From NCBI GenBank assembly GCA_051362555.1, contig CM120645.1, positions 124,001-188,000 on the forward strand: a DNA stretch of 64,000 nucleotides. Direction: 5' to 3'. The translations under genes were made by a program, and so were the position numbers. Under the pieces are notes generated by a model. That model was not told where the DNA came from. It saw nothing but the letters and a program-made list of their open reading frames with translations, and did no database searches. This document shows positions 73 through 62,122 of the stretch, piece after piece. This DNA is from Lingula anatina (taxonomy: Eukaryota > Animalia > Brachiopoda). Position 1 is the first letter of the stretch, and each line of letters starts with the position of its first letter.

Positions 73-753
73 CTGACTTTTCAGTTCTGCCACTTTGGAG
101 GAATGTTCAGCATCTGGGAGGTGGGATAATTCCTCGGCCTGCTGTCTCAAGGTTTGCTTCAAGTTGTCAATCTCCTCAGAATAATTCTGCTCCATGAGAA
201 CCTTGCTCTGTAACTTCATCTGCAGGCTGTACTTCTCTTGCTCCAAAGTCTGGAAGACAATATCTTCACACTGTACCTCTATCTTAACAGTGTAGTCTGT
301 ATACACAGAGCTCTAGCTGTCACTGTACCTCTGTCTTAACAGTGTAGTCTGTATACACAGAGCTCTAGCTGTCACTGTACCTCTATCTTAACAGTCTAGT
401 CTGTATACACAGAGCTCTAGCTGTCACTGTACCTCTATCTTAACAGTGTAGTCTGTATACACAGAGCTCTAGCTGTCACTGTACCTCTATCTTAACAGTG
501 TAGTCTGTATACACAGAGCTCTAGCTGTCACTGTACCTCTGTTTTAACAGTGTAGTCTGTATACACAGAGCTCTATCTGTCATTGTACCTCTATCCTGGC
601 TGTCATGGACCTCCGTGACTCCTCTAGCTCCTTGTTCAGCTCTCGGTTGTCCTCTAACAGTGACTTGCCAATCTCTGCTGCCCTCTGGAGGTTGGTTTCA
701 CTCTCAGACAGCTGTTGTCGCAGATTCTGTATCTCCATCTCAGCACCAGACAT
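73..753 (-). CDS. SPDL1: Spindly-like coiled-coil dynein adaptor, first two coding exons (753-589, 249-73); gene continues past the window start
   Basis: Spliced translation MSGAEMEIQNLRQQLSESETNLQRAAEIGKSLLEDNRELNKELEESRRSMTARIE|TLEQEKYSLQMKLQSK... has the CC1 box (AAxxG) close to the N-terminus and an EQEKYxLQ motif as recalled for Spindly. GT-AG sites are in phase 0. A BICDR-family identity is the alternative. Confidence 0.72.
269..595. repeat. 52-bp tandem repeat (~6 copies) containing the donor site of the SPDL1-like first coding exon
   Basis: Unit cactgtacctctatcttaacagtgtagtctgtatacacagagctctagctgt. On the minus strand each unit contains GATAGAG|GTACA, the exon end plus donor. Confidence 0.93.
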
Positions 754-1612
754 CACAGTAGTTTTCCTGCTAAAACAAAAGTTCTTGAACCATTATAATC
801 GTGTTTTCAACAAAATTTTGAAAGTGCCCATACAGTCTGAGACATAAACAGCCATTATCAAAGTATTTGGTTTTATATAAAACAAAAAAAAAAAAAAATT
901 TCTTTTCTTTCAGATCTGTACAGGTTAGAAATTAATTGATATAAGCAATCAGATGCATGGTTTGGGCCCAAAACAGGACATTACATTTCTAACTTACATA
1001 GTGTATAACGCAATCCAAAGATTCCACAGTTCATGTCAAATTTACTTAAGGTTGCATTTATAAAGAAAAACCCAATGATCAGTTAAATGATTTATTCATC
1101 AGTCAGTAACTACATATTTTAAGTCAAGTCTCCAACCCTTAACTCTCTGAAATCGCATCCATCTTCCACGTGCTCCCAAGATCATCTCTCCCAATCTCCT
1201 CCCACGGTATTCACTCTCAAAGCCTATATACTGATTTCTTATCTTAGGTGGATCCAATGCTGCACAAGTGACTTGTGTGAAATGAAGGCAAACCTTAATT
1301 CCTGATAATTGTATAGTTAATTGCTTTACATTTGTGTTGTACAAAGAAGCTGCCACATTTCTCAAGAACTCTTGGACAGCAATAAGTTTCATCATACAAC
1401 ATCAAAATATATTTTTTATCTTCACATCAGACACAACAAGGGTATCAGTGTCCTAGCTAAGCGCCCATGAACAAATTTAACATTCTATGGTTCCCAAAGT
1501 TTTCAAGGGCTAGGGCAATACTTTTTGCATATACCCCCCTACCACACCTACAAATCTTTGATTTTTATTTATTTTAGGGTTGGAGATGGGGTGACACTGA
1601 TCAATGTCTATT

Positions 1613-3386
1613 AACCCATTACAGTGACGTCATATTTGCTCCGTAACACTAGTCCCGCGGCCATGCTGGAGGGAATGAACGACGGGCAATAGTAGCGGTA
1701 ATATAGGTGAACCAAATAAAATAAAATAAACTTCATATCGCGATCAAGTACACCAAAGGGAAAAGGATATATACAAGCTGAAGCGTCAGCTGCTCAGCAG
1801 GATCGACCAATATGAACTCAAGACAGTCTAAAAACATGGAATCCTACCAAATGCTACTTATCCAACATCGTGTTGTCAGAAGATAGTTCAGTTATCTTGT
1901 ACTTCATTTTTCTTGTTCATTGGGTAATAACAGTTATAGTTTGAGAGAGTTTAATGTGTAATCATAAGTTTAACCTTACATAGAAGCAACTTTTTTCATA
2001 AAGGATAGATATAAGGAGAAATTTGAGCTGATCATCAGGATAAACCCTTATGGACTCAAGGAAGAATGTATGCAGGATTGTCATAAAGTATGACATGAAA
2101 TATTGCTGTCAGTTATATGACTTATCTCTACATCGTGAAGCTGTCAGAAATTATTTCAGCATTCTTGTACTTCATATTGGTGCATTAGAAAGTACATGTA
2201 ACAATACTGTGGTTTGAGAGAGTTTATTATTCACCATGAATGCAACCATTCGTATAAGCTACATGTTAGGATTTTATTATTATTCAGTCATTCACAGAAG
2301 CAAGGCATTTTTCACACTTATGTATTTATGATGTCCAATGTAAAATAACAATAATTCAGTTCATGAATTGATCTTCATTTCTGTTTTTTTTTTTTTTTTT
2401 TTTTTGATAATTTACTTGCGCCCAATCAGTGTGGCTTGGTGGGAAATGCCAGTCAATTTCCTAAATGTAAATTAATAGAAAGATGACAATAGTGATTTTT
2501 ATTCATATTGTAACTTACAACATTACAGTTGAAAGGAGCAGAATTTAACATTTTTACAGAGGAAAGTGCAAATTCATTTCATGAGGTTATATGTCAATTA
2601 CACCTGAGGTAGAATTTACTTGCAAAATAAAATTACTCTTATCACTACACCAAATCGAAAATTAAGCCACTAACTTCCAAATGCACCTCATACAGGTAAT
2701 TGATTTAATTGGCCCAGCTCAGCTGTGTACAGTACAAATATATAGCCTTGACACTAATTGGCAATACTGCTAGCCAGGTATTAAAGAGGTAGGTGACAGC
2801 CGATAAAATCTAGAGAGCACCGTAACTGATAACAAATTACACCCAAGGCAATAGGTGAGTCTTCATTATAAAAGTCGAAACCCTGCCTGGGTATTTCCAC
2901 ACGTTTTAACAAATTAACACACTCTCCACCCAAACTTTTTGGGCACTACTTTAAATATATATGTAGTGTACGTGCGCCCCAAATGTACACACCTAGGTCT
3001 TTGGTTTTCTACTGTTTTTTCTTTTATGGTAAAATCTGCACAGCTGGCTCTCCATTCTTTGCTATAAAATAAATTAGTTTTATCCTTTACTTTTCCGAAG
3101 AGTCTTGATTCAAAGCCACCTCGCCGTCTCTCCTCCGTTTATGGTTTTAGTTCCTTCACCATGGATTGTTACCACTGCAGGCAGCCTGTGAACGCTTGTA
3201 AAGTTAGTTATCTTCTCTCGATCAAATAACCTGCAGTAATTCATCATTTTGCTCGGTTAAATATCAAAGAAAATACAGAAAACGAAAACTGAACTACAGA
3301 CATGGCTTGTTCATGCGCAGCAGACGATTCCGGTCTCCCTCCAGAATGGCTGCCGTTTGTTTTGATGACGCAGGCTCTAATGGGTC
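1613..3386. mobile_element. Possible degenerate DNA transposon with imperfect inverted ends
   Basis: Left end acccattacagtgacgtcata...ggccatgctggaggga. Reverse complement of the right end acccattagagcctgcgtcatc...agccattctggaggga. No intact ORF. Confidence 0.4.
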
Positions 3387-3729
3387 ATTATTCAAATACA
3401 CTGTATTATCGGGCCGTATTATCTAGAGAAGTTAGGAAATTTACCAAATCAGTATTTGTATAGTTGCCCTCTTACAATTTAACGGGCCTGACATTTCAAA
3501 TTAAAATATCCAAAATTTAGTAAATGAATTGCCGAACTAATTCACAGCAAGCAAATCAAATCAAAGATGGTAGGTTTGACATCCAGATTCGCCTTCCTTA
3601 TTTCTGTAGTAATTACAAAGTGGAATTTGGTCGCTGACGAAAGAAAGATAGAGAACAAGAAGAAAAGATCCCTTTGTCGAAAATTGAGTAATAAAACAAA
3701 CTACAACCGATATGATACCCACTGAATAT

Positions 3730-3780
3730 TACGCTCCGCTTGTTTGAATTCTCCAATATGGCGCCGCTTCAAATATTGAC
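3730..3780 (-). promoter_or_regulatory. Candidate promoter/5' end of the SPDL1-like gene
   Basis: Local CpG cluster with TTTGAA (CHR-like) on both strands, CCAAT and a YY1-like AATATGGCG, upstream of a probable mitotic gene whose first coding exon has an acceptor at 767. Confidence 0.3.
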
Positions 3781-5937: not shown

Positions 5938-8900
5938 CTAAGAACAAGTCTGCATACCTCTCTGTAGTAAGTCTAACATAACTGGGTACACAGCAGCAAA
6001 CTCCTTTCCCTCTCTGACACGCACAGTCTGCACATAGGACTCAAGTGTGCCCCTGGAAATAGTTAATTTTTTTATCACAGTCTGCACATAGGACTCAAGT
6101 GTGTCCCTGGAAATAGTTAATTTTTTTATCACAGTCTGCACATAGGACTCAAGTGTGCCCCTGGAAATAGTTAATTTTTTTATCACAGTCTGCACATAGG
6201 ACTCCAGTGTGCCCCTGGAAATAGTTAATTTTTTTTATCAGAGGAATCCTATCTGGGATTTCGCACCAAAAGAAATTACTTTTAAAAAGTTATTTTAAAT
6301 TTCCTATTCAAGAGTCACTACTCAACCCATCTCTGCACTTGGATTCCATGTTGCATTCTATTTTTAATGAAATAACTCCGTTCTACATCTTTCTTGTAAC
6401 ATTTAGACTAGGATGTTTCTCTGTACATTTCATGTGGAAATAGCATCAGTAATAAGTGCAGGATGAGAAACAAAATAGTTCTTATTTCGGCCTTACTTTT
6501 CGGCAGCTTAGTTAAGAGCATCTTATGGCTTTAATTAATTAATTATTTTGGATAGTATTTCTGGACTTACTTTAACAATGCCAACCTTTCTTTCTCTGCT
6601 GGGTGATCATCTAACCACTGACTATATCTACTAATAGACCAGTTTGCTGCCTGGAAATGTGGAAAACAATTATATAAAAACTCAAGTTTTTTATACATTG
6701 CCAGTTTGATACATTTTTACAGATCTTTTAAATAATCAATTTTTTAAGGTGGGGTGGGGGGAGCATGAACGTTTAGGGTCTTCTTTTCCACCTTAAATGT
6801 CACAGCTCTCTCGGTGGTGGCAGTCATATAACAATCAACATCAACTTATAAAAAACATGTTTTGAACCTTGTGATGTTGAACAGACACTGAGTTTATCTG
6901 GCAAACAGAAAGTGTAAGGCAGTACTATAGGGTCCTATATCTTACCTGATGTGGACTACGTAATTCCTGAGGACCTCTGGCAAACAGAAAGTGTAAGGCA
7001 GTACTATAGGGTACTATATCTTACCTGGTGTGGACTACGTAATTCCTGAGGACCTCTGGCAAACAGAAAGTGTAAGGCAGTACAATAGGGTCCTATATCT
7101 TACCTGATGTGGACTACGTAATTCCTGAGGACCTCTGGCAAACAGAAAGTGTAAGGCAGTACTATAGGGTCCTATATCTTACCTGGTGTGGACTACGTAA
7201 TTCCTGAGGACCTCTGGCAAACAGAAAGTGTAAGGCAGTACTATAGGGTCCTATATCTTACCTGGTGTGGACTACATAATTCCTGAGGACCTCTGGCAAA
7301 CAGAAAGTGTAAGGCAGTACTATAGGGTCCTATATCTTACCTGGTGTGGACTACATAATTCCTGAGGACCTCTGGCAAACAGAAAGTGTAAGGCAGTACT
7401 ATAGGGTCCTATATCTTACCTGATGTGGACTACGTAATTCCTGAGGACCTCTGGCAAACAGAAAGTGTAAGGCAGTACTATAGGGTCCTATATCTTACCT
7501 GATGTGGACTACGCAATTCCTGAGGACCTCTGGCAAACAGAAAGTGTAAGGCAGTACTATAGGGTCCTATATCTTACCTGATGTGGACTACGCAATTCCT
7601 GAGGACCTCTGGCAAACAGAAAGTGTAAGGCAGTACTATAGGGTACTATATCTTACCTGATGTGGACTACGCAATTCCTGAGGACCTCTGGCAAACAGAA
7701 AGTGTAAGGCAGTACTATAGGGTCCTATATCTTACCTGATGTGGACTACGCAATTCCTGAGGACCTCTGGCAAACAGAAAGTGTAAGGCAGTACTATAGG
7801 GTCCTATATCTTACCTGGTGTGGACTACGTAATTCCTGAGGACCTCTGGCAAACAGAAAGTGTAAGGCAGTACTATAGGGTCCTATATCTTACTTGGTGT
7901 GGACTACGTAATTCCTGAGGACCTCTGGCAAACAGAAAGTGTAAGGCAGTACTATAGGGTACTATATCTTACCTGATGTGGACTACGTAATTCCTGAGGA
8001 CCTCTGGCAAACAGAAAGTGTAAGGCAGTACTATAGGGTCCTATATCTTACCTGGTGTGGACTACGTAATTCCTGAGGACCTCTGGCAAACAGAAAGTGT
8101 AAGGCAGTACTATAGGGTACTATATCTTACCTGGTGTGGACTACGTAATTCCTGAGGACCTCTGGCAAACAGAAAGTGTAAGGCAGTACTATAGGGTCCT
8201 ATATCTTACCTGATGTGGACTACATAATTCCTGAGGACCTCTGGCAAACAGAAAGTGTAAGGCAGTACTATAGGGTACTATATCTTACCTGGTGTGGACT
8301 ACGTAATTCCTGAGGACCTCTGGCAAACAGAAAGTGTAAGGCAGTACTATAGGGTCCTATATCTTACCTGGTGTGGACTACGTAATTCCTGAGGACCTCT
8401 GGCAAACAGAAAGTGTAAGGCAGTACTATAGGGTACTATATCTTACCTGGTGTGGACTACGTAATTCCTGAGGACCTCTGGCAAACAGAAAGTGTAAGGC
8501 AGTACTATAGGGTCCTATATCTTACCTGATATGGACTACTTAATTCCTGAGGACCTCTGGCAAACAGAAAGTGTAAGGCAGTACTATAGGGTACTATATC
8601 TTACCTGGTGTGGACTACGTAATTCCTGAGGACCTCTGGCAAACAGAAAGTGTAAGGCAGTACTATAGGGTACTATATCTTACCTGATGTGGACTACGTA
8701 ATTCCTGAGGACCTCTGGCAAACAGAAAGTGTAAGGCAGTACTATAGGGTACTATATCTTACCTGGTGTGGACTACGTAATTCCTGAGGACCTCTGGCAA
8801 ACAGAAAGTGTAAGGCAGTACCATAGGGTACTATATCTTACCTGATGTGGACTACGTAATTCCTGAGGACCTCTGGCAAACAGAAAGTGTAAGGCAGTAC

Positions 8901-11900
8901 TATAGGGTACTATATCTCCCATTGCTGGACTGCTGGCAATATGTTCACTAGTTTGGAACAGCAGAGGCCTAGAATCCACGGGAAAAATACAAAATATTGT
9001 GCTTTTAAATCTATTCAATGCTTTTTCAAAAGAATCATACACCTTTACTGGACAGTTAAAACACTTCTCAAACTTCTTCACAAAACAGATCATTTAGCCA
9101 TAATCTTGGCAAAGTGGTGCCTAGGAAAATCTTAATATTAGATTACATACTGTGTTAGAGTACTGATTCAATTAACTTCCAGTATTTTCACATCATAAAA
9201 AAAAACTCTTCTTTGTTAACAAACAAGTTTCCCTGTACCTGAATGCCCGCAGCAGTCGGTAAGGTTTCCCCAAATCTGTCACTCGCCTACAGAAAGGCAT
9301 AATGGCCATCTCCATCTGGGCAAAGTCTGCCGCCAGGCGTAATTTCCCTCCATCCCCCAGAGGGCGCACTATGCTGGCATGTCGTACAAACAAGTCCAGC
9401 GCTCTGCAGGCTATAGTATGAATACTGGGGCGAAGAGAGGAGAGAGAGGAAATTACAACACCAGTCTGAGATTATTCATATGTAACACTAATAAAACAAA
9501 TACCTTCATTCATAATATCTAAATGCAAAACTGTTCACGTTTCCTCAAAAAAGTTCCCCAACCTTATCTGCGTTAATAATATTACCTTTAGAAGACTTAA
9601 CTCTATAAAACCCTCCAGTTGTCTTATATATTACCTACCTGTCCATGATAAAGTCAGTACAGTTGAACTGTGTCAGATAATCTGACTGCACTTTGGCTAT
9701 AAAACCCTCCAGTTGTCTTATATATTACCTACCTGTCCATGATAAAGTCAGTACAGTTGAACTGTGTCAGATAATCTGACTGCACTTTGGCTATAAAACC
9801 TTCCAGTTGTCTTATATATTACCTACCTGTCCATGATAAAGTCAGTACAGTTGAACTGTGTCAGATAATCTGCCTGCACTCTGGCTATAAAACCCTCTAG
9901 TTCTCTCATGTACAGGGAACATGGTATGTCAACTTGGCCCCCGTCACCCGGCACAGAGCTAAACAGAGAACAAGGCAAACAATGAAGGAAAAGGTTTCAC
10001 ACTGGTTTCTAGATAACATGAGGCTAAATGCTGAAATCATTTCATTCCTTCAGTTCTCAACACATTGAGAGGAGTATCAGCTGTCACTTTACCCAAAGTC
10101 AAATACTCACCTAAAATATTCACTTTTCATAATTAATTTTGTCAACGAAAAAGAAATCCTCCAACTTACGCTGCAAAGTCCTCATTATGCATGGTAAGAA
10201 TGATGGACTCTATGGCGTCTGAGATTGAAGTCAGCAGTGGCTGGATTGTGTTTCCCATCAGGACAACGACAGTCTGGAAAATAAACATAAAGTATATTGT
10301 TTATAACTGGAGAACAAGAATACTCCTGTAGGCTCGCTGTAAAGACTAGAAATATTATTACAATTTGTACACTTCACTTTGCCTGTATATATTTCATTTG
10401 ACATTGGGCCAATATCCTTTATTAACACTGCTAACACAGAGGGTGTAAAAAGTAAGTCATACATTACATCATCTGTTGAAGTATAGGGACGTTTTCAAAT
10501 TGGTTTTTAAAGAATCTTACGTCATTATGATGAGAAATGAGTAAAGTCCTCTCAAGTACCGTGGGAACATACCTCTAACGCCTGCTGCATGCTCTCCACG
10601 GCAACAGGAGGAAAATGAACCAATCCATTAATGACCTGAAAGAAGAAATTAAATGTAAGATATAACATATAATACAGTTTGTTATTTTGCCTCATTGAAA
10701 ATAAGCACACAGCAACTCAATAAACTGAGCAAAAACTAAATACTGTAATAAATACTATAAAAAAGTTCAATGTGGGTATAAAGAATCTATGGTGTCTAGA
10801 AATAGCATGAAAATATCTCAATGAAAACTATAAGCAGGTACCTTATCAATTCAACCATTAGTCCATGTCAAGATATCCATTACTGTTACATACTGTTGAT
10901 AAAACTTAGTCCATGTCAAGATATCCATTACTGTTACATGCTGCTGATAAAACTTAGTCCATGTCAAGATATCCAATACTGTTACATACTGTTGATAAAA
11001 CTTAGTCCATGTCAAGATATCCATTACTGTTACATACTGTTGATAAAAACTGAGTCCATGTCAAGATATCCATTACTGTTACATACTGTTGATAAAACTG
11101 AGTCCATGTCAAGATATCCATTACTGTTACATACTGTTGATAAAACTTAGTCCATGTCAAGATATCCATTACTGTTACATGCTGCTGATAAAACTTAGTC
11201 CATGTCAAGATATCCAATACTGTTACATACTGTTGATAAAACTTAGTCCATGTCAAGATATCCATTACTGTTACATACTGTTGATAAAAACTGAGTCCAT
11301 GTCAAGATATCCATTACTGTTACATACTGTTGATAAAACTGAGTCCATGTCAAGATATCCATTACTGTTACATGCTGCTGATAAAAAACAGGGCTTTGTC
11401 CTCTAAAGACACACCAGATCTATGCATCCTATAACATCCTATAACAGGGCTTTGTCCTCTAAAGACACACCAGATCTATGCATCCTATAACATCCTATAA
11501 CAGGGCTTTGTCCTCTAAAGACACACCAGATCTATGCATCCTATAACATCCTATAACAGGGCTTTGTCCTCTAAAGACACACCAGATCTATGCATCCTAT
11601 AACATCCTATAACAGGGCTTTGTCCTCTAAAGACACACCAGATCTATGCATCCTATAACATACTATAACAGGGCTTTGTCCTCTAAAGACACACCAGATC
11701 TAAGCATCCTATAACATCCTATAACAGGGCTTTGTCCTCTAAAGACACACCAGATCTAAGCATCCTATAACATCCTATAACAGGGCTTTGTCCTCTAAAG
11801 ACACACCAGATCTAAGCATCCTATAACATCCTATAACAGGGCTTTGTCCTCTAAAGACACACCAGCTCTATGCATCCTATAACATCCTGTAACAGGGCTT

Positions 11901-14757
11901 TGTCCTCTAAAGACACACCAGATCTATGCATCCTATAACAATCTACAGTTTATGTGGGTTTCATGACAATAACAATAAGTATCATTTGGCACCTGCTAAA
12001 AGCTATATATGACTGTTTTACCTTGGACACTGCCACATGGAGCTGGAACAAAGTGTTGACAACTGCAGCATTTCTTCCCTGTCCCTCTGTGCTAGGACTT
12101 ATCACCTGGCTAGCTTCACCATCAGTACATACCTGGCAGACAGATAACACATAGAACATCATCAGTACATACCTGGCAGACAGATAACACATAGAACATC
12201 ATCAGTATATACCTGTCACATAGATAACACATAGAACATCATCAGTATATACCTGTCACACAGATAACATAGAACATCATCAGTATATACCTGTCACACA
12301 GATAACATAGAACATCATCAGTATATACCTGTCACACAGATAACATAGAACATCATCAGTACATACCTGTCACACAGATAACACATAGAACATCATCAGT
12401 ATATACCTGTCACACAGATAACACATAGAACATCATCAGTACATACCTGTCACACAGATAACACATAGAACATCATCAGTACATACCTGTCACACAGATA
12501 ACATAGAACATCATCAGTATATACCTGTCACACATATAACACATAGAACATCATCAGTATATACCTGTCACACAGATAACACACAGAACATCATCAGTAT
12601 ATACCTGTCACACATATAACACATAGAACATCATCAGTATATACCTGTCACACATATAACATAGAACATCATCAGTATATACCTGTCACACAGATAACAC
12701 ATAGAACATCATCAGTATATACCTGTCACACATATAACACATAGAACATCATCAGTATATACCTGTCACACAGATAACACATAGAACATCATCAGTATAT
12801 ACCTGTCACACATATAACACATAGAACATCATCAGTATATACCTGTCACACAGATAACACATAGAACATCATCAGTGTATACCTGTCAGACAGATAACAT
12901 AGAACATCATCAGTATATACCTGTCACACATATAACACATAGAACATCATCAGTATATACCTGTCACACAGATAACACATAGAACATCATCAGTACATAC
13001 CTGTCACACAGATAACACATAGAACATCATCAGTACATACCTGTCACACAGATAACACATAGAACATCATCAGTACATACCTGTCACACAGATAACACAT
13101 AAAACATCATCAGTACATACCTGTCACACAGATAACACATAGAACATCATCAGTATATACCTGTCACACATATAACACATAGAACATCATCAGTACATAC
13201 CTGTCACACAGATAACACATAGAACATCATCAGTACATACCTGTCACATAGATAACACATAGAACATCATCAGTACATACCTGTCACATAGATAACACAT
13301 AGAACATCATCAGTACATACCTGTCACACAGATAACATAGAACATCATCAGTATATACCTGTCACACAGATAACACATAGAACATCATCAGTACATACCT
13401 GTCACACAGATAACATAGAACATCATCAGTACATACCTGTCACACAGATAACACATAGAACATCATCAGTATATACCTGTCACACAGATAACACACAGAA
13501 CATCATCAGTATATACCTGTCACACATATAACACACAGAACATCATCAGTATATACCTGTCACACATATAACACATAGAACATCATCAGTATATACCTGT
13601 CACACAGATAACACATAGAACATCATCAGTATATACCTGTCACACAGATAACACATAGAACATCATCAGTATATACCTGTCACACAGATAACACATAGAA
13701 CATCATCAGTATATACCTGTCACACAGATAACATAGAACATCATCAGTACATACCTGTCACACAGATAACATAGAACATCATCAGTATATACCTGTCACA
13801 CAGATAACACATAGAACATCATCAGTATATACCTGTCACACAGATAACATAGAACATCATCAGTATATACCTGTCACACAGATAACACATAGAACATCAT
13901 CAGTACATACCTGTCACACAGATAACATAGAACATCATCAGTATATACCTGTCACACAGATAACATAGAACATCATCAGTATATACCTGTCACACAGATA
14001 ACATAGAACATCATCAGTACATACCTGTCACACAGATAACATAGAACATCATCAGTATATACCTGTCACACAGATAACACATAGAACATCATCAGTATAT
14101 ACCTGTCACACAGATAACATAGAACATCATCAGTATATACCTGTCACACAGATAACACATAGAACATCATCAGTATATACCTGTCACACAGATAACACAT
14201 AGAACATCATCAGTATATACCTGTCACACAGATAACACATAGAACATCATCAGTATATACCTGTCACACAGATAACACATAGAACATCATCAGTATATAC
14301 CTGTCACACAGATAACACATAGAACATCATCAGTACATACCTGTCACACAGATAACATAGAACATCATCAGTATATACCTGTCACACAGATAACATAGAA
14401 CATCATCAGTATATACCTGTCACACAGATAACATAGAACATCATCAGTATATACCTGTCACACAGATAACATAGAACATCATCAGTATATACCTGTCACA
14501 CAGATAACATAGAACATCATCAATACATACCTGTCACACAGATAACACATAGAACATCATCAGTATATACCTGTCACACAGATAACATAGAACATCATCA
14601 GTATATACCTGTCACACAGATAACACATAGAACATCATCAGTACATACCTGTCACACAGATAACACATAGAACATCATCAGTACATACCTGTCACACAGA
14701 TAACATAGAACAAAATCAATGTAGTCTGCTTTGATTTCATGAACAAAATCTGGATAC

Positions 14758-14831
<74 letters not shown>

Positions 14832-27183: not shown

Positions 27184-27226
<43 letters not shown>

Positions 27227-33900: not shown

Positions 33901-34290
33901 TTGAAACAACCCCATCTACAGTGAATGCACTATCTACAGTACAGACAACATCATCAGTAGAGACAACAACAACATCTACAGTATGGACAACGCCATCTAC
34001 GGTGAATACACCATCTACAAAAGAGACAATGCCATCATCAGTAGAGGCAACAACAACATCTACAGTACAGACAACCCCATCAACAGTGAATACACCATCT
34101 ACACTAGAGACAACATCATCATCAGTACAGACAACATCTACAGTACAGACAATCCTATCTACAGTGAGTACACCATCTACATTGAATACAACATCTACAG
34201 TAAAGACAACAACACCCACATTAGATACAACAGCTGCAATGTCCAGTGTGAAAACAGCACCAACAACCATGTCTTCTCCCAGAACTACAG
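30951..34290 (+). CDS. First coding exon: signal peptide + Ser/Thr-rich mucin domain with 25-aa and 12-aa internal repeats
   Basis: Acceptor tttttttcag just upstream; hydrophobic N-terminus IAVWIYCVVWLGSL; repeats TTSGSATTTSALNTPSSTVQTEGDM and VETSTVDTAPSA; donor ACAG|gtgagt. Confidence 0.9.
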
Positions 34291-35007
34291 GTGAGTACAA
34301 GAAGATGGCCATCCTTTGTTTTCAGCAAGTTAAAGCAGAAATGGAAATGGTTTAAACTTATGCCAGGACATAAACTGCAATAATTATGATATGTGTGGGC
34401 ATAATACTGTTACATTGTGTACCAGTAGTTGAACATTTGATAACAACATGCTTTTTATTATCAGATGTACTTAACGTGTGGTTTAAAATTTGAAATTAAA
34501 GGTGTTTGATGTGAAGATCAATATGTAGATACCAATTTTCATGTGTTAAGTTAAGATAGGTTTACTGATGTAACACATGTATTACAGGCTTTTTAAGATA
34601 TCCAAGAAATTTAAGCACATATTTTTTAAGCTGAATAACACATTGTAAACTTATTGCTATTCTTTATTTTTACAGTACCAGTATCTTCCCTTCAGTTTGT
34701 TACCAGGAAACATGCTCTGAGCATCCCAGAAAACACAAGTGTGGGGACAGGTATGGAATAAGCACTGTTATAACTAGCTGGTTTGTAAATCATGAGAGTT
34801 ATGTAATCTGAAAGTGAAAAGTAATTGTATTCTGCAATTCATTCCTCTAGCTGTCACCAAAACTAGGTTTACAGCCATGCTTACATAATATAGGGTTTAA
34901 TTTAACTGTCTGAAATACTCAACAGAGGTAAGATGCAATTCATTCTCAAAAATGGGCCAGATATTTTTTAACATTCAACTTCTCTTGCTTTATACATAAG
35001 TGTTTTG

Positions 35008-35070
<63 letters not shown>

Positions 35071-38000: not shown

Positions 38001-41000
38001 CAGATTTATACCAGCAGTAGACTTAATATGTCAGATGTGATCAGTGATGTTGAAGATCTCATAGCATACACAGTACAGGTTACAGTGGAGGCCAGAGATT
38101 TAGGAACACCTCCCAAATATAACAGCACTACAGTGGATATTATATTCCTTGCTGATCAGTTTGAGATCAACATTAAGGAAAATGTGGATAATATAACATT
38201 TGGAAATATAAGTGTTCCTGCTTTGAGGAGTGTAGACTTTGTTGGAGCACCTGCTGGTATAAGTGTATTGCAAGATTTGACCCACCTTTGGCTTTCAAAA
38301 GGGTTGGATTTTGAGCAGAACTCGAGCTTTCACTTCAGCCTCAATCTTACCCTGGATGACAGCCACTACACTGTACCTGTGACAGTGCATGTCATTGATG
38401 TGAATGATGAACCTCCAGAGTTCAGTGAAAGTGTCTACAACTTCTCAGTGCCAGATGGTGCTAGGTACTTTACAATGATCAATATGACCACTGCCACTGA
38501 CAGGGATTCTACACACATAACATACTCCATAACAGATGTGGAAGATGCCAGGAATTCAGTGAAGGAACTATTTTTGGTGAATGAAGAAACAGGAGCACTG
38601 TACACTAATGATCAAATCCGTTTCAGAAACCTCCTTAGAGAAAAGCGCTTCAAGTCAAACAATGACACTTACCTTGAGTTCATGGTATGGGCATCAGATG
38701 AGAACTTCACAGCCAATGCTACAGTCAGAGTGACTGTTCTGAAGTATAATCCTAATTCCTTCAACCTGGAGAACACCACCGAGGCCTTCTTACTGGAAGG
38801 AAATTACAACAACTCTTTACATTTAGTAACCAATAAAACAGCTCGAGCAAATTTCTCTGACTACAACTTTCAAGTGACTGCAAAGCAAGATGAAATGATG
38901 TTCTTCATCAATGAAACAACTGTAAGATTTTTTTCTTGGTACAATATTTTCTGTTTTATCTATTTATGTTAATATTTCAGATGGGATCTTGGTACTGTGC
39001 TACTTTGTCAGTCTGTTAAAAATTTATAGAAAATGATGAAGAAAAAAGATTAACTTATGGTGAATCAAAGTCAAGCTTTGTAAAGCATGCTGCTGTGATT
39101 TTTTACGGTATGGTGTATCACAATATCAGTCTATATTCCTTTCATTGTAGTATACTTTACTAAATTCTATTATTTATAGGGATTCATCTATACAAACAAA
39201 GTATTTGACAGGGAACAAAATGACAATTATATAGTGTATGTGATGGCATTAGAGGAGGAAGTGGATAGCTGTCAATCTGTGGTGAGTGTATTTTATATGT
39301 CAGCTGTCAATCTGTGGTGAGTGTATTTTATATGTCAGCTGTCAATCTGTGGTGAGTGTATTTTATTGGTCAGCTGTCAATCTGTTGTTTGTGTATTTTA
39401 TTGGTCAGCTGTCAATCTGTGGTGAGTGTATTTTATTGGTCAGCTGTCAATCTGTGGTGAGTGTATTTTATTGGTCAGCTGTCAATCTGTGGTGAGTGTA
39501 TTTTATTGGTCCACTGGTGAGATTACTGCCCTCTAGTAGCCAAAGATGAAATTAATTTTCAGACTGATATGACTCATATGACGACAGTGCTAGGTTTCAC
39601 AGTAAATTTAAAAAACAATATGTCTCAACTTAAATGTTGACAATGCACAGCATATAGATGTTACATATTATGTAAATATGTTTAATATATATATTGTCAG
39701 GGGCAGATCCAGAGATATTTTCTGACTCTTCCAAATAATCTCTATTGATCCATCCTCTAATTGACCATCTTCCAACAGAAAAAATAGATGCCCATCAATG
39801 TATACATAAAAAATGTTGACTGTTTTCCAGAAGACCCAGAGGGCAGCTTCAGTCCGCCCCTGAATGTAGATAGTCATGGTGGATTGATCTCCATTAAATA
39901 AATATACATATATACAGTTTACATGTAAAGTACATCATCACTATCTTGTTTTCCAGGTGATAGCCATTGTAAATATCACTATCAGAGATGACAATGACAA
40001 TGCACCTGTTTTCTCTCATACCACCTACAAGGGAACAGTACAAGAGAACACAACAGGTGCTACAGTGGAATTACAGGTATTAATATTAATATAGTAAATT
40101 TAGATCATTATGATTTACTCAGTATTATAACATATTGCAGTATGTAAATTAAAATGAAGGATTAATGTTAATTGAACTACTTGCATTTAATTAGCTTTTT
40201 GTTTATGCCTGCTGTCAGTTTAATAGTTGGTAGAGATGAGATACTTACAGGTGGTATGGACATTCATGAGTGCACCTCTTTTGTCCAAAAAGCCACTTCC
40301 TAAAAAATACATTGTGCGTGCCTCCAAATGACAAGGTGATTTTTTATGGCCACAGATAATGATGATTAATTGACTGGTAGTTTACATGTAAAATTGTTTG
40401 TCCTAAAGTTTATTGTATTACATATACAAAAATTTTTCTTCAACCCAGAAATTAAAATCAAAGGAGTTGATAGTACTACAATGTATATTTCATTACTTTG
40501 GCAGCCACTCATAGCAGCATCAGACAAGGATATTGGATCAAATGCTTTGATACACTATGCACTACTGAATGGGACAGATGCCTTCCAAATTAACAACACA
40601 TCAGGGGTTATTTGCACCAATGGTATTTTGGACAGAGAGGAGACAGACAGTCACACTGTCCTGATTTCAGCCTCAGATGGGAAGTACAATGACACAGCAA
40701 TAGTTAATATTACAGTGGTTGATGTGAATGACAATGCTCCTGAATTTGAGATGGAATTCTATCAATTTAATGTGTCAGAAGACCAAGAAGTGGACACAAT
40801 TATCGGTCAAGTCTTAGCCACAGACAGGGACAGCAGCAGCACCACATCACTGCACTACAGAATTGCGGAAAATGATGAAAATAGAAATTTCAGAATGAAA
40901 CACCCATTTGCGTCCGGTAAGATCTGGATTTACAGTAGCCTTGATCGTGAGAAAATCCCAAATGGCACAATAAAGTTTCATGTCATTGTGGATGATTCAA

Positions 41001-44000
41001 AGTGCGACTCTTCTCCAACATGTACATCACATTCTTCCACTGCCACAGTCCAGGTGGATATAGGAGATATTAATGATAATTCACCCAAGTTTGACCAAGA
41101 TGAATACACTGTCTACGTTGATGAGGGTTGGAACGGCACATTTGCTCAGGTCAAGGCCACAGATCCTGATGCAAAAGAAAATGGCACCGTTACTTACTAC
41201 TTGAGCGAGCCAGACAAACAAGCATTTGAAATAGACTCCACATCAGGAAATATAACAATGCGGCACCCTTTTGACTATGATGAGAATCATGCTCTAGATA
41301 TAAGTTTCAAAGTTTATGCTAGAGATAACGGCAAAGATGCTTGCAATACTAGTGCAAAGGTCAAGGTCATCATTAAGGACATCAACGACAACCCACCTGA
41401 GTTTTTGATTTCAGACATAAGTCTAGCATTACAAAATGGGCTAGTCATTCCCATGGTGGCCCTTGATAAAGATTCTGGAGAGAATGGAAATATTACATAT
41501 TCTCTTCCAAGTAACCCGTGCAACATGTCATCTCATGGTACTGATAATCCCTGTAGAGAGTGCTTTGACATTTCAAACACTGCCCTATTATCAGTCAAAG
41601 ATACATGTATAAAATCCAAAGAAAAATGTAAACATTTTGTTCTCACAGTGGAAGCAACTGACAACGGCTCCCCACCTCTTTCTACATGTGCAAACATCAC
41701 ATTTTCAAGTTTAGGTCAAAATGTACCATGCAAATTTGATAACTTGGACTATTACATCAATATAACAGAGGAGCAGCACTACCCCTGGCCAGTGATAAAT
41801 TTAACTTACACCAAATCTAGCGAGGAGAAGAAGTGTAACTTTGATCTGGACTGTGGCTCAGGGTCCAGGTTTATTATTATCAATAAGACAACAGGAGAAA
41901 TCCGTCTCAATGGCACACTGGACAGAGAAGACTATTACAACACAACTGGTAAGATGGATGCCATGCTGTGTAGTGTACGTGTCAGTGCACCTGGAGAGCT
42001 CAGCAGTGTGGCTCAGGTAAATGGTGGTTGTAACTGAGTTATTATTTAACTCCTTTCCTCATTGTGAAGTTTTTTCCTTTTCATTATACCAGTATATTGT
42101 ATCTCATCTTTGAATATTTGTAATTTATACCACCTCACTGACAGTATGATGATGACTTAGTTTTGTTTATGACATTATATGTATTCCTCTTTGTATCATC
42201 CCTTGGTACGAATCTAGTAGTCCCATCTCAGGAAATATTGTAGACATTTTTAAGTTCTTATTGACAGGGACAACACTAAATCACAAAAAAAAATTCAATT
42301 TTATTGCCTCTTGTAAAGTATTTTAACTTATTACTATATTTTAACTTTTGGAATGATTTTTATGTATTACTATTCTTTTCTTTTTTTCTATCCACCATAT
42401 TGTGGTGAATATATAAACAAATGTATAAATAAGGAAATAATTGATCAGTTCAACTCTTAAAAGTGACATTTGCTCCCCACTTCATTCTGTACTGTCACTG
42501 ATATTTTCAGGTACATCTTCATATAAATGACATCAATGACAACACCCCAGTGTTTGACAGTGACAGTGTCTTCTGGTCCAGGAGTGTGAATGAAAGTTAC
42601 ACTGGACATGTAGTGACCCTCACCGCTCATGATGCAGACATTGGAACCAATCAAATCATAAGATATGTTATCAGAGAGCAAGACCCACCAGGTATTAACT
42701 TTCAATGTAATACTGGTAATATCATCTACATATGTACAGCCACAAATCTTAGCTGTACACAGACAAGTCAGGGTCTAGCCCTGTTCTAAAAAAATCCGTA
42801 CTTTATAAGTTTGGAGTCAACATGCAATGACTAGTTTAACAATTTTTCATGTAAAGAATAAATTGCTTTAAATAGTTTCCTCTACAGTCAGATTTGAAAA
42901 TGAATCTCAAGCATAGTAAACATGGCATATACTTACAGGCTATAATGATTTCATTTATTGTTTTCATTCACAAAACATTTATTTATGTTAAATTTCTTGT
43001 TATTGAATTGGATTTCTGCAGGTCACTTCAGCATCAATGCAACCACTGGAGAGATGATGGTCACCAAGTCATTTGATAGAGACACAATGGATGACCCTAA
43101 TGTGAGGATTGTTGTATGGGTAAGTAACAAGATGGAGGTGATTTGTTGTGTTTGATATAGACATATCATGGATGACCCCAATGTGAGGATTGTTGTATGG
43201 GTAAGTAACAAGATGGAAGTGATTTGTTGTGTTTGATATAGACATATCATGGATGACCCCAATGTGAGGATTGTTGTATGGGTAAGTAACAAGATGGAGG
43301 TGATTTGTTGTGTTTGATATAGACATATCATGGATGACCCCAATGTGAGGATTGTTGTATGGGTAAGTAACAAGATGGAGGTGATTTGTTGTGTTTGATA
43401 TAGACATATCATGGATGACCCCAATGTGAGGATTGTTGTATGGGTAAGTAACAAGATGGAAGTGATTTGTTGTGTTTGATATAGACATATCATGGATGAC
43501 CCTAATGTTAAGATTGTTGTATGGGTAAGTAACAAGATGGAAGTGATTTGTTGTGTTTGATATAGACATCATGAAGATCAAAAATGACCTAACATAAATA
43601 AGTGGTCTAGCAATTTCCTCCCCTCACAATGGAGGACAACTCTGCTCACGATAGGAGAACGTGTGAGGGGAGGCAATTGCATATATTACAACTTACTTGG
43701 CTGTCAGTTCTGAAATGGTCTTACTCATTGTTTAAGACCATGTTAGATTATTTGTGTTCTTAAATTTCACTTTCAGACCAAATCAAGAGCACTAGTGGGA
43801 GCAGCAGTAAAGATATAACTGTAGAAATCCTGGACATGAATTAGTTATTTTAATATTCATATATATTATCTATTAAGGCAGTTGATGGTGGAGAGAGGAG
43901 TAGTAGTAAATCCTGGACATGAATTAGTTATTTTAATATTCATATATATTATCTATTAAGGCAGTTGATGGTGGAGAGAGGAGTAGTAGTACAAATATAA

Positions 44001-47000
44001 CTGTAGAAATCATGGACATCAATGACATAGCTCCTGTGATCTTCTGTGCCAGCTGTAATGGATCCCACATTGAACTGAAGGAGAATACAACAAATGAAGG
44101 CATTGTAAGTAACATATGGATCTTTATAGGAGGGGGGGGCATTCAAACTTTTCTTTATTTTTATAAAATACATGTACTTGTAATATGTCGTTTACTATTT
44201 GTTCATTTAATGTCACTTTCATACTTGAAATTTTAATTGATTATCTTTATTTGACCACTATGTGTGTTTCATCCCATATTATGTTATCTGAGGCATTTGA
44301 TTATTACCTTTTTTTAAGAAAGAAAGTCATATACTTGTGCTGGTTTGTTTTTATAAATTATTTTAATACATGTTTTTGGGAGCTTTTTATTCTGAACTGC
44401 AGTTTTAAATTAAATTATATTTTGCATATAATAATTGTTATTATTATTGTTGTTGTTGTTGTTGTTCATTTTATTGTAGCTCCTGGTTGTTAACAGCACT
44501 GACAATGACATTACTCCAGGGAAGGTGACATATTCTCTGGATACACTTAGTATAACAAGGGGGTTTGTTATTGATGGTAAATATACAAGTTATCTTCTCA
44601 TAGCTGCTGGGAGGAAGATGAAGAATGGAGATGGTTCTCGTGTTTACTGGTTAATTGTAAAGAGTATTGTAGAATGTCATATCAAAAAGTGCCACTAATT
44701 TTAAAATGCATATATACGATATGAGTGAATACATGTTGGTGATGAGAAAATTAGCACAAATTAAAGCAACATGTTTTTAACAGGGAATTCACTGAAGTTC
44801 AAACATTTTAATTTTTATTAGATGAAGGTCAAACTGAAACATCTAAGATTAACAGCATTCTTCACATTTACAACTTCAGATGTCACAGGAGAAATTCGAG
44901 TGACAAACAACACATTTGACTATGAAGACGAAGCTGATCACTATTTTAATGTCACAGTTTATGCAAATGATGGCACAAATGTCAGCCAAATGAAGCTTAC
45001 TTTGAGCCTGGTGGATATCAATGATAACGCACCTGTCTTTGACCAGAGACGCTATGAGTTTACTGTGCCTGCAGCGGCTAAGGCTGGCTACACAATAAAC
45101 AATGTAACAGCAGTGGATGCTGACAGCCAGTCTTATATCACATACAGTATATCAGATACAGGTCAGTCTTATGTCACATACAGTATATCAGATACAGGTC
45201 AGTCTTATATCACATACAGTATATCAGATACAGGTCAGTCTTATATCACATACAGTATATCAGATACAGGTCAGTCTTATATCACATACAGTATATCAGA
45301 TACAGGCAAGTCTTATATCACATACAGTATATCAGATACAGGCAAGTCTTATATCACATACAGTATATCAGATACAGGTCAGTCTTATATCACATACAGT
45401 ATATCAGATACAGGTCAGTCTTATATCACATACAGTATATCACATACAGGTCAGTCTTATATCACATACAGTATATCACATACAGGTCAGTCTTATATCA
45501 CATACAGTATATCAGATACAGGTCAGTCTTATATCACATACAGTATATCACATACAGGTCAGTCTTATATCACATACAGTATATCAGATACAGGTCAGTC
45601 TTATTTCACATACAGTATATCAGATACAGGTCAGTCTTATATCACATACAGTATATCAGATACAGGTCAGTCTTATATCACATACAGTATATCCGATACA
45701 GGCAAGTCTTATATCACATACAGTATATCAGATACAGGTCAGTCTTATATCACATACAGTATATCCGATACAGGCAAGTCTTATATCACATACAGTATAT
45801 CAGATACAGGTCAGTCTTATATCACATACAGTATATCAGATACAGGTCAGTCTTATATCACATACAGTATATCAGATACAGGTCAGTCTTATATCACATA
45901 CAGTATATCAGATACAGGCAAGTCTTATATCACATACAGTATATCAGATACAGGTCCATCTTATATCACATACAGTATATCAGATACAGGTCAGTCTTAT
46001 ATCACATACAGTATATCAGATACAGGTCAGTCTTATATCACATACAGTATATCAGATACAGGCAAGTCTTATATCACATACAGTATATCAGATACAGGTC
46101 AGTCTTATATCACATACAGTATATCAGATACAGGCAAGTCTTATATCACATACAGTATATCAGATACAGGTCAGTCTTATGTCACATACAGTGTATCAGA
46201 TACAGGCAAGTCTTATATCACATACAGTATATCAGATACAGGTCAGTCTTATGACACATACAGTATATCAGATAGAGGCAAGTCTTATATCACATACAGT
46301 ATATCAGATACAAGTCAGTCTTATATCACATACAGTATATCAGATACAGGTCAGTCTTATATCACATACAGTATATCAGATACAGGCAAGTCTTATGTCA
46401 CATACAGTATATCAGATACAGGCAAGTCTTATATCACATACAGTATATCAGATAGAGGCAAGTCTTATATCACATACAGTATATCAGATACAGGCAAGTC
46501 TTATATCACATACAGTATATCAGATACAGGTCAGTCTTATATCACATACAGTATATCAGATACAGGTCAGTCTTATATCACATACAGTATATCAGATACA
46601 GGCAAGTCTTATATCACATACAGTATATCAGAGACAGGTCAGTCTTATGACACATACAGTATATCAGATAGAGGCAAGTCTTATATCACATACAGTATAT
46701 CAGATACAGGTCAGTCTTATATCACATACAGTATATCAGATACAGGTCAGTCTTATATCACATACATACCACGGGGCTGATATCTAAACAAAATGATTGC
46801 AGAGACCGATATAATGAATGAGACGGAGTGACTGCCACGTGCGAAAGATGGGCAGGAAATCAGCCAACTACTCGCAGAAAACCACTGACCCATGTCCCTG
46901 TCAGTACACACGCAACCACAAACCATTCAAGTAAATGAAAATGATTGGACGGTGACTATAATTAGTCAGTATACGCGGGGAAAGTCCATTCTTTGATATC

Positions 47001-50000
47001 ACCCCATGCGCGGTGATATCAGCGTGTTCTATTCAAAGTTAGGGGGGTTGGGTGGGGAACACGCACGATTTCCCTTTGTATGTATGACAAATAATGCACT
47101 GTTACCCCCTCGCCCGATATACACGATAGCATGCCTCGCTGGAGCTCGGCCTGCTATCGTGATATCGGGCTCGTGGACAGTGCATTATTTACTACATACA
47201 GTATATCAGATACAGGTCAGTCTTATATCACATACAGTATATCAGATACAGGCAAGTCTTATATCACATACAGTATATCAGATACAGGTCAGTCTTATGA
47301 CACATACAGTATATCACATACAGGCAAGTCTTATATCACATACAGTATATCAGATACAGGCAAGTTTTATATCACATACAGTATATCAGATACAGGCAAG
47401 TCTTATGTCACATACAGTATATCAGATACAGGCAAGTCTTATATCACATACAGTATATCAGATACAGACAAGATATCAGTATGAGTTTACAGATGGCAGC
47501 TAATTCCTGACTGCTTATTTGTATTTTTTATGATATTATAATTGTTTCAGACAATTTTGTATACAGACAAATTTTTAGATGTTGATTTTTCAAACATTTT
47601 AGAAAGATTACATCCACATTTGAGAAGATCAGGCAGATAAATTTTCAATAGATCTCAGAAAATGTTAAGTCCAAAACCAATAAACATTGGTCACAATTGT
47701 GAGAAAAAGAGTTTAAACCTTTCAAACATAATACTGCATTTGATATCACACTAGATGTTGGAATATATTGAAATTGTTCACTTCCAGCCTCCTTTGCCAT
47801 CAATTCCTCCACTGGTTTTATCACCAGAGCAGGGACAAATTGCATCAGTGGTAACAACACTTTCAATGTCTCTGCTACAGATGGAACATATACATCTGTG
47901 GCTGAAGTAAGTAATTTTTAATGGAATTTTGTACATTTTCCCTTTCTTTTGTTAAAAGCTGACTGGTTGTTACTGTCTAGTGTATACATGTATTTTGTAT
48001 ATTTGTCACACATGTAGGATGCTTTGGTCTGTAATGGATACATAAAAAATTCTTCAGTTGAGATATTTGGGTTTGTTTTAGCTTTAATTTTAAGATAAAC
48101 ATCCTGCACATTGTCTGGCAGTTGGATATACCATGACATGACTTGGTGAATTATTTCAATATTGCCATATTGCAATGATCAAACTCCTCTTTACTCTATA
48201 CTTTTATATTTTTCTTTTGATAAGATGCTGAACACATCAGTTAATTTCTTTGTATGATATTTATGTATCCAACCATGACTATTTCTAGGTTGTGATTACG
48301 GTGACCTCAGAAAACACATATCCTCCTGTATTTAACCAGTCAGTTTACAGCTTCACATTGGACAGAATACAAGTGCACAACCATTTTGCTAGTTTAGTAG
48401 AATCAGATTTGGTAGTCATGGCAACAGATGATGATTACCTGGACAACTGTGCCACTCATGTAGATAATAGCAATGGAAAAGTGACTTATTCATTTCAAGA
48501 TAATCATGGTCAGTGATACAAGAAATGCCTGAGTTGCCTTTGAGGATATTTACTTTTCTGTGATGATATTTACTGTTCTGGAACTTATGTGAAATATGTT
48601 ATCAATTAAAACAGTGAAATTTTGAATAGTAATCATTACAATTAGCACACTGAAATATAACAAACCTATTTAGAAAAACAAAAACTTTTATTAATGTAAA
48701 ACTTCAATATTAGACAAAAGGTAATACATCAATTACCATATTTGCTCACATTTTCAGATTTTTTTCAATAGAGTAATCATGTATACATTTTTCATTTCAG
48801 ATATGTTTATTTTTTCAAGTAATGAAGTTGGGGTTATTGGAATTCTTAGAAGTGACTTTCTGAAATATGGCAATCCTAGGGTAGCACTGAAAGTTCTTGC
48901 TACTGACAATGGAAGAAACAGAAAGCAGGGAGAGGCCACTGTAGTCATAAAAATTAACAACCAGAAACCAGTTTTCAGCGCCAGCTACCTACGGGTGAAT
49001 TTGTCAGCAAATGCAGTGAGTAACTAAAATTAGCTTGCACATGTAAATATTATTAATAACCAGCAATCTGCACAGTATGTATGTGGATATTATCTTGATT
49101 ATCTCATAGTCCAAGCACGAGACTATGCAGTATAATGTGTAGTTGAATTTTGAACTATTTACATTGAATAAAAAAGTAGAATTCACAAAAATTGTCTGCT
49201 ATTTATGTAGGTTATCTAGATAACAATATACCTAGCATTTGTTTTTCTTAATTTTGCATCATTATTGTACGCCTAAAAACAAAAATATTTGTCCTGTGAC
49301 TTATAAAATTAATTATTATCGAGTTTCATTTGCTACAGATGTATCAGTCAATTGCAAGTAGATCAAAATAAAACTTAGCTGTCCATCCTCATTAATAAGG
49401 GTGTAAGTGGCTAGTAATATTGTAACAATGTATCAAAAACTGTAAACTTAATTCTCTGTGTTATCAGGCTGTCCACACCACAGTGGCAGTGATAGAGGCC
49501 GAGGACAGTGATGAGAATTCTACCACACTCTACAGCCTTGTGGAGGGAGATAGCAAACATTTTCAACTCAAGAACTACACTGGTATTTTACAGTTGATGG
49601 AGAAACTGGTTCTGCAAAATGAAGACTACAATTACACTGTAAGGCCCCATTTAGAATAGGGGACTAACTAGTCTGAGGGTCAAATATGGTGTCCCACTAC
49701 AAAGCTTGCCATCTAATCTGCTAATAGACACTGAAAAGATATCCCATGGGGAAGTATTCAAGTGGGCAAGCCATATTTGACCCTCAAACTAGTTAGTCTC
49801 CTCATTCTAAAAAGGCACTTAGAAGATAGATTGATTCGCTATTCACTGGAAACTTGTCCTTGATTTAATGCTGTGACTGAAACCATCCATAGATAACAAA
49901 TGTAATAAATTCCAGGTAAAAATAAGAGCCACAGACCCTGTGTTGAAGGAGGCTGGACTACCTGATGAATACTGCAGCAGTGACCTTGACCTGATTATCA

Positions 50001-50627: not shown

Positions 50628-50678
<51 letters not shown>

Positions 50679-59358: not shown

Positions 59359-59590
59359 TAGATTTTAAGATTTAAAGCTTCTATTTGCCCTCGCAAATGA
59401 TGGCTTAGAACACCACATATAGTCGTGTTGGAAGCCGTCATTCAAGACGAACCATTTAAGATAACAGGATTTGATTTACATAGTCGTCACATTTCACAGA
59501 GTCACGATCATGGACTTGCATCAGCTTTTTCATTCTCGTACATAATATATGACAGATGGCTCCAGTCTACAGTTTATTTTGCTGCCGGTC

Positions 59591-62022: not shown

Positions 62023-62122
62023 GTAGGTCAAGCCACATTTGTTAATTAAAACAAATTTTTATATTTCACTTTATAAATTTACGCATTGCGTCTTCGGTGC
62101 ATCGGGTCTTGTCGTAGTTTTC

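Follow-up and report, generated by a model that had tools for sequence, protein, structure and literature searches.

Mirage-like minisatellites at the splice junctions of three neighbouring genes in the brachiopod Lingula anatina

Minisatellites whose repeat unit is laid over an exon–intron boundary are known from amphioxus as mirages. The original mirage paper is Canestro et al. 2002, as cited in two later ones. In the passages of Ebner et al. (PMC3087553) used here, mirages of Adh3 and of the globins BflGb6 and BflGb9 have units of 10–160 bp, are spliced normally and differ in copy number between haplotypes; the corresponding passages of the lancelet PGBD5 paper (PMC3902484) add mirages of PGBD5 and troponin C, and somatic length instability is reported for the Adh3 mirage. 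The structure is known and little studied, and the same part of PMC3087553 calls its origin unclear. Here we analyse 64,000 nt of Lingula anatina DNA (assembly GCA_051362555.1, contig CM120645.1, positions 124,001 to 188,000 of the forward strand; this whole stretch is the window, and positions are counted from its first letter), in which 13 tandem arrays straddle splice junctions of three neighbouring genes. Judged from their sequence, these are mirage minisatellites of the amphioxus type, a known kind of repeat in a further phylum. New here are the measured local excess of such arrays at junctions, a likely copy-number polymorphism and splice choice at the level of reads.

Two other described systems are close. 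In humans, according to the passages of PMC1557585 used here, variable number tandem repeats (VNTRs) span junctions in F7 intron 7 (37 bp), CBS intron 13, intron 2 of the interferon-inducible gene 6-16, LMNB2 and PDGF intron 4. There splicing takes the most upstream donor, exclusively in F7, LMNB2 and PDGF and together with the one or two donors after it in 6-16 and CBS, and in F7 minigenes the identical downstream donors are functional yet unused. Furthermore, intron gain by tandem duplication of AG/GT segments has been put forward (Rogers 1989 and Zhuo 2007, via the passages of PMC3087553), and the part of PMC2812944 seen here gives internal tandem repeats at exon–intron boundaries in human segmental duplications.

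The anatomy of the Lingula arrays fits the published mirage description. As far as the amphioxus passages go, the shared features are boundary-spanning tandem units at both donors and acceptors, of locus-specific size (25–94 bp, within the amphioxus range), GT or AG signals that persist in many copies, use of the authentic splice site (here at 2 of 13 arrays) and haplotype copy-number variation (here likely, at one array with an 81-bp unit). The present case differs in its host, a brachiopod, in the crowding of 13 arrays with up to 66 copies into three neighbouring genes, and in having the excess over a geometric null measured, which the amphioxus passages do not give. As in the human VNTRs of those passages, the first unit lies over the boundary, the donor is reiterated and length is polymorphic (here likely, at one array); whereas the human cases are isolated and at donors, the arrays here are dense and five are at acceptors. 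With AG/GT intron gain, as described in the passages above, they share splice signals duplicated in tandem, and the units at COG5 exon 14, an exon that begins GTATGT, read AG/GT. Unlike that process, existing introns have been lengthened and no new one made, since the exons on either side of the array-bearing introns still join into a conserved protein (COG5). A new intron with both ends from duplicated exon sequence was found at none of the 13 arrays, each of which sits at one intron end and includes intron-derived bases.

Among the titles and abstracts listed by literature searches, with subscription papers outside the search, we found neither a brachiopod mirage nor a genome-wide invertebrate count of junction-spanning minisatellites. 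In its main text, the chromosome-level genome paper on Lingula (PMC13121700; supplements outside the search) does not mention 'tandem repeat', 'satellite' or 'intron'. Earthworm metallothionein repeats were considered as a parallel and set aside, because in the part of PMC12783039 consulted they are intronic repeats and not junction arrays. Dense arrays, a measured excess, splice choice seen in reads and a likely polymorphism in copy number make Lingula a workable system for the study of possible mutation bias at exon edges and of 3′ splice-site choice among identical tandem copies.

The arrays and their excess at junctions

The genes that carry the arrays are as follows.

5938..22621 (22621–5938), minus strand: COG5 gene, 21 coding exons with GT–AG ends, open frame of 808 amino acids plus stop
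30951..56003, plus strand: mucin-stalk cadherin gene, 23 modelled coding exons, 4336 amino acids plus stop
73..3754, minus strand: 5′ part of a Spindly/BICD-family dynein adaptor gene (SPDL1-like), exons at about 3754–3723, 769–589 and 249–73

The COG5 exon model was built from homologues and its open frame checked. The cadherin model comes from frame and splice signals alone, exons 18–19 being placed by frame only, and the junctions of the SPDL1-like gene were taken from RNA joints. The following arrays were catalogued, the last two lines being counter-examples inside introns.

269..595, minus strand: SPDL1-like donor array, 52 bp × 6.3 (7 nt exon + 45 nt intron)
6022..6240, minus strand: COG5 exon 21 acceptor array, 54 bp × 4 (23 nt intron + 31 nt exon)
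6897..8917, minus strand: COG5 exon 19 donor array, 79 bp × 25.6 (76 nt exon + 3 nt intron)
9603..9906, minus strand: COG5 exon 17 donor array, 94 bp × 3.2 (80 nt exon + 14 nt intron)
12120..14712, minus strand: COG5 exon 14 acceptor array, 40 bp × 66 (27 nt intron + 13 nt exon)
16473..16661, minus strand: COG5 exon 10 acceptor array, 75 bp × 2.5, decayed (83%)
16819..16929, minus strand: COG5 exon 9 donor duplication, 58 bp × 1.9, decayed (86%)
18294..18538, minus strand: COG5 exon 6 acceptor array, 55–56 bp × 4.5 (88%)
20222..21349, minus strand: COG5 exon 4 donor array, 25 bp × 45 (16 nt exon + 9 nt intron)
39267..39511, plus strand: cadherin exon 4 donor array, 35 bp × 7
43072..43569, plus strand: cadherin exon 8 donor array, 81 bp × 6.2
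43821..43991, plus strand: cadherin exon 9 acceptor duplication, 83 bp × 2.1
45128..47472, plus strand: cadherin exon 11 donor array, 36 bp, 45.5 + 7.8 copies in two blocks
10858..11940, unstranded: abutting arrays inside COG5 intron 14, 48 bp × 11 and 56 bp × 9.9
18760..19299, unstranded: array inside COG5 intron 5, 181 bp × 2.9

A sequence-only reading of the window had proposed 13 junction-straddling arrays in three genes, and all of them were confirmed at their sites, 8 at donors and 5 at acceptors. Tandem Repeats Finder (TRF) at score 50 recovers 12 of the 13; the COG5 exon 9 donor duplication appears only at laxer settings. In a test independent of repeat finders, the 24-mer across each of 88 junctions was sought 20–300 nt away on the intron side: 13 junctions echo at 0–4 mismatches, exactly those of the 13 arrays, and the remaining 75 need at least 8. 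Of 1,706 intronic control positions 168 were echoed, 6 of them outside the listed intronic arrays, and 5 of these 6 fell in one TA microsatellite. Arrays occupy 8 of the 40 COG5 junctions, 4 of 44 in the cadherin gene and 1 of 4 modelled in the SPDL1-like gene, and make up 46% of the intron bases of COG5 and 22% of those of the cadherin gene.

Each unit consists of an exon edge (7–80 nt) with its own adjoining intron bases, and matches its own exon edge alone; the view that the units are mutually unrelated was upheld, and the unit sizes first given lacked 58 and 75 bp. In all, the arrays cover 9,969 nt, of which 9,202 nt exceed a single unit per array, where roughly 10 kb had been estimated at first. 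Their mixed age, from near-identical to decayed, was also upheld. The 52-bp array occupies most of a 339-nt SPDL1-like intron (250–588). Copies of the 54-bp array and the first block of the 36-bp array are in frame with the reading frame open across them, and the 79-bp array terminates in a partial exon copy of 47 nt. Splice signals persist in many of the copies, e.g. GTAAGA in 24 of 24 scored at COG5 exon 19 and CAG in 65 of 65 at exon 14; at exon 4, GTATGT is retained in 31 of 44 intronic copies.

Exon-derived parts of the copies look unselected overall, because units divisible by three number 4 of 13, the chance level, and because the changes in these parts comprise 19 synonymous and 43 non-synonymous ones where 15 synonymous are expected (of these 62, 6 depend on matches of 7 nt in the SPDL1-like array, which are unreliable). 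A search across the 13 arrays for selection on in-frame units found none, and the same holds overall for a synonymous excess between copies and exon.

Three side observations concern cadherin arrays. Among 52 scored copies of the exon 11 donor (45162–47472), 30 carry GTCAGT and 20 carry GCAAGT, a GC-type donor, and the last copy is without the +1 G. The same array is interrupted at 46767–47193 by an unrelated insertion of ~425 nt with a 7-nt flanking direct repeat, like a small transposon with its target-site duplication. Upstream of the 83-bp duplication, 43777–43840 holds an older decayed copy of the start of exon 9 behind an AG, which a loose contig end from DNA run X10 (see below) resembles; this suggests two rounds of duplication at the exon 9 junction.

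For the excess over chance, arrays were collapsed to one unit, leaving 44 introns of 18,969 nt in all (median 345 nt), and the overlap expected of a random seed of the observed sizes was taken from geometry. Because the introns are so short, junctions are not the tiny target that the sequence-only reading took them for: the geometric expectation that a seed overlaps a junction is 0.19–0.26 per array, and about 21–24% for seeds of the observed sizes. Even so, with units of at least 15 nt, 13 of 19 arrays span a junction where 4.1 are expected (P = 6.3e-6; odds 9.6, lower bound 3.2), and with units of at least 24 nt it is 13 of 16 (P = 1.2e-6; odds 16). TRF rows at score 50 alone give 12 of 18 (P = 2.1e-5), and limiting the null to introns <1 kb gives P = 5.5e-5. 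The second block of the 36-bp array was counted together with the first, and the count excludes microsatellites, arrays that lie beyond the three genes, repeats within the coding sequence of the mucin exon and ~20 weak intronic rows (scores 41–97) that the laxest TRF setting adds. An enrichment beyond a uniform neutral null therefore holds within the window after these corrections. The P values come from a single window and take no account of its having been chosen for showing the pattern; over the whole genome, lower odds are probable.

About three arrays away from junctions had been reported, which is right for units of at least 24 nt (48, 56 and 181 bp) and too few for units of at least 15 nt, where there are six. 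The 56-bp and 48-bp arrays, the largest intron-internal pair of the window, abut exactly and extend away from a single seam, at which the COG5 sense strand resembles a weak AG followed, after ~31–37 nt, by a GT. If the seam were an unannotated or poison micro-exon, both arrays would count as junction arrays; the candidate micro-exon is out of frame and is not present in the compared homologues.

Splice-site choice and copy-number variation

It had also been stated that the true exon is always the terminal copy. This holds by geometry and hence is no evidence; what is informative is the site used, which was examined at 2 of the 13 arrays in two polyA RNA runs of other animals, X12 and X15, with joints listed at limits of 2 in 100 and 3 reads. 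The 339-nt SPDL1-like intron is cut at the first, exon-proximal donor (joint 249/589; 32 reads with 24 starts in X12, X15 having almost no reads here), and for the last COG5 intron the 54-bp array supplies its final, exon-proximal acceptor (joint 6051/6570; 26 reads in X12, 7 in X15). Within these limits no decoy joint is listed at either array in X12 or X15. Since the 54-bp copies are in frame, open and ahead of the last exon, mRNA surveillance is not expected to hide decoy use there. From the joints seen at these two arrays, the copies are likely harmless. COG5 is expressed in both RNA runs, and the cadherin stretch is nearly silent in X12, with almost no exonic reads and no splice joints, which says nothing of cadherin expression elsewhere.

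Presence in DNA was checked with contigs from four runs of four study codes (X1, X3, X4 and X10), over stretches with arrays of up to ~500 nt. Contig breaks or raised depth support the presence of four of the shorter arrays in these public runs. At the 52-bp array, X1 contigs enter from both ends without differences and depth is 422 vs 108–212 alongside; X4 has depth there too. X1 may be the source animal, and the other runs differ from the window. At the 35-bp array, X3 and X4 contigs end 30 nt inside and X4 depth is 162 vs 84; over the 83-bp duplication, depth reaches 110 vs ~48 in an 84-nt X3 contig (43825–43908); at the 81-bp array, X4 contigs break and depth is raised. The more diverged run X10 has 58 differences over ~900 positions in cadherin exon 6 (~6%). 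It too breaks inside the 81-bp array, where one of its contigs begins at the copy 5 donor and takes in copy 6, so at least two copies are present, as they likely are in X4.

In X3, by contrast with the 6.2 copies of the window, a single 3,752-nt contig omits 405 nt, i.e. 5 × 81, with no change in depth, and passes over 17 shared letters from the beginning of the first copy into the end of the last one. X3 thus likely carries a single-copy allele of this one array, as read from contigs, and in that allele exon 8 would read Lys where the window has Arg. Collapse of the assembly graph was considered as an explanation of this contig and rejected, with some doubt because a filter removes some records. 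A 30-nt run is common to the first and last copy further on, yet the joint has 17 shared letters. Against collapse, the contig follows the last copy past the joint, X3 breaks at both neighbouring arrays, the array contains no further long contig of X3, and bin depths of 17.9, 0 and 14.5 compare with 14.5 expected from this contig alone. The single-copy allele may be ancestral or a contraction, and the evidence leans to contraction because X10, which is more diverged, seems to have at least two copies.

The 79-bp array appears to have left its trace in a gene model. A Lingula anatina COG5 protein in the database (P0001) matches variant copies of the array, not the true exon 19, over 22–24 residues and lacks exons 15–18 of the COG5 of the window, which suggests that a second assembly has the array as well and was misannotated because of it. 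Such arrays can mislead gene models in this way. P0001 also has an internal duplication, residues about 325–503 being repeated as 504–682, and looks misassembled or misannotated.

Origin of the arrays

The account that we prefer, while giving it only an even chance of being right, is that these mirage arrays stem from microhomology duplications that are commoner where exon DNA is involved, survive only across junctions and grow by unequal exchange. In a first step, a segment of 25–94 nt would be duplicated with breakpoints at varied distances from the splice site, in several cases with 2–4 nt of shared sequence. Short shared bases at array ends would fit microhomology-guided duplication, and by eye we read TTT at COG5 exon 4, TG at exon 21, TGAT at exon 14 and GTA at cadherin exon 9. 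The exon share of the unit ranges over 0.13–0.96, consistent with uniform (Kolmogorov–Smirnov p = 0.34), and both donors and acceptors are affected, so the breakpoints are not fixed by the splice site. Wholly exonic duplications would then be purged, whereas those spanning a junction would leave the mRNA unchanged as splicing keeps to the exon-proximal site. Thereafter slippage or unequal crossing-over would alter copy number (1 to 66) and homogenise the copies, which would later decay while deletions or insertions trim the far end. Neutral survival accounts for the persistence of junction duplications, not for their outnumbering intronic ones. For the approximately tenfold excess a fourth and least secure step would be needed, a higher rate of duplication in or from exon DNA, which is GC-richer (0.48 and 0.42 in exons, 0.32 in unique intron) and would be more alike, and better paired, between homologous chromosomes. 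Junction arrays would then be the surviving rim of an exon-biased process and not products of the spliceosome.

Several points weigh against this account. The enrichment rests on one window chosen for it. An exon-biased process might give exon-rich units, yet the exon share does not depart from uniform. In the contigs, introns show modest allelic divergence, e.g. 23 differences over ~3,390 nt of exons and introns in X3, which weakens the argument from conserved exons and divergent introns. Long partial exon copies of 15, 22 and 47 nt close several of the arrays; one simple duplication cannot yield them, so second events (later deletion or template switch) have to be assumed. On the side of splicing, RNA reaches 2 of the 13 arrays in animals that may lack them, and X12 coverage within the 54-bp array is ~5–6-fold vs ~27 in the exon (by arithmetic on depth bins), which could be unspliced RNA or decoy acceptors used at a low level, below 3 reads.

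A wider proposal is possible, though we would sooner doubt it: that a junction-targeted mutational process, driven by splicing, exon-edge chromatin or recombination between divergent homologues, acts in Lingula and many other marine invertebrates about 10 times faster than in intron interiors, accounts in some genes for as much as half of the intron DNA, can be reversed by contraction and can put a decayed copy into a coding exon, as in the likely single-copy allele with Lys for Arg.

Alternatively, duplication could be uniform and neutral, with the excess produced by ascertainment, i.e. by the choice of the window, better survival beside an exon that cannot be deleted and easier detection of units of higher complexity. 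The window was indeed selected for its pattern among very many, the null expectation is already 21–26%, and ~20 weak intronic rows do appear at lax TRF settings. P values of 1e-5 to 1e-6 with a lower odds bound of ~3, and the near-confinement of the intronic control echoes to listed arrays, nevertheless make this rather unlikely.

A mutational mechanism coupled to splicing or transcription, which the sequence-only reading had put forward, would have R-loops, polymerase pausing or nucleosome edges at splice sites repaired by tandem copying of the junction. The approximately tenfold junction excess would suit it, as would the nominally larger share of array-bearing junctions in expressed, housekeeping COG5 than in the cadherin gene, near-silent in one RNA run. 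Three units break 2–9 nt from a donor (COG5 exons 4 and 19, cadherin exon 11), and in green algae tandem repeats are commoner near intron–exon junctions, according to the part of Zhao et al. (PMC3887541) used here. However, breakpoints are spread over the whole range and not placed at the splice site, 8 donors to 5 acceptors is no bias, and no exon–exon join occurs in any unit shown, so an mRNA template is not indicated. The mechanism thus gains no direct support, and we regard it as unlikely.

It is very improbable that the arrays are kept for a function, in which stacked splice sites would tune splicing or give alternative protein ends and the 36-bp block would be coding (12 residues × 45). 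Most copies do retain a donor or acceptor that is intact, an open frame of 652 codons covers the 36-bp block, the 81-bp array is apparently common to a run ~6% diverged (X10), and the COG5 exon 17 and cadherin exon 8 arrays differ from the exon mostly by synonymous or conservative changes. Yet there is no overall excess of in-frame units or of synonymous changes, no decoy joint is listed at the two arrays reached by RNA, X3 likely lacks the 81-bp array, and a normal cadherin repeat results when the first donor of the 36-bp array is spliced, the block itself being interrupted by the insertion. An assembly artefact, already unlikely, is scarcely credible: although the comparison with contigs covered arrays shorter than those of 1.1–2.6 kb and none of the contigs runs through a multi-copy array from end to end, those of four DNA runs break or gain depth at four shorter arrays, copies carry many distinct substitutions, and a separate database gene model matches variant 79-bp copies.

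Genes and repeats of the window

The window is without any N. Translated COG5 exon 5 is 100% identical with Lingula anatina COG5, the other listed matches being at most 91%, so the DNA comes from this brachiopod or one very close to it. For the adaptor gene, the structural database (PDB) gives Spindly on top at E = 0.02 and BICD2 and BICDR1 at E = 0.14–0.24, and the SPDL1 label is plausible but weak on this similarity. The first exon of the cadherin gene (30951–34290, 3.3 kb) would encode a mucin-like stalk rich in Thr and Ser, ~1,100 residues long, which contains several internal repeats, and the exon after it (3.7 kb) divergent cadherin repeats. In cadherin intron 20, on the minus strand, a 204-codon open frame (52560–53174) resembles what we take to be the C-terminal part of a LINE reverse transcriptase. 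Dispersed high-copy repeats lie at 1600–3450, 4500–4830, 39613–39870 and 43590–43800, where the contig depths add up to between tens and hundreds of times that of single-copy sequence. A fourth gene, at 59546–62049 on the plus strand and outside the statistics, starts with what looks like a signal peptide and includes a collagen stretch of Gly-X-Y type (18/54-bp coding repeat).

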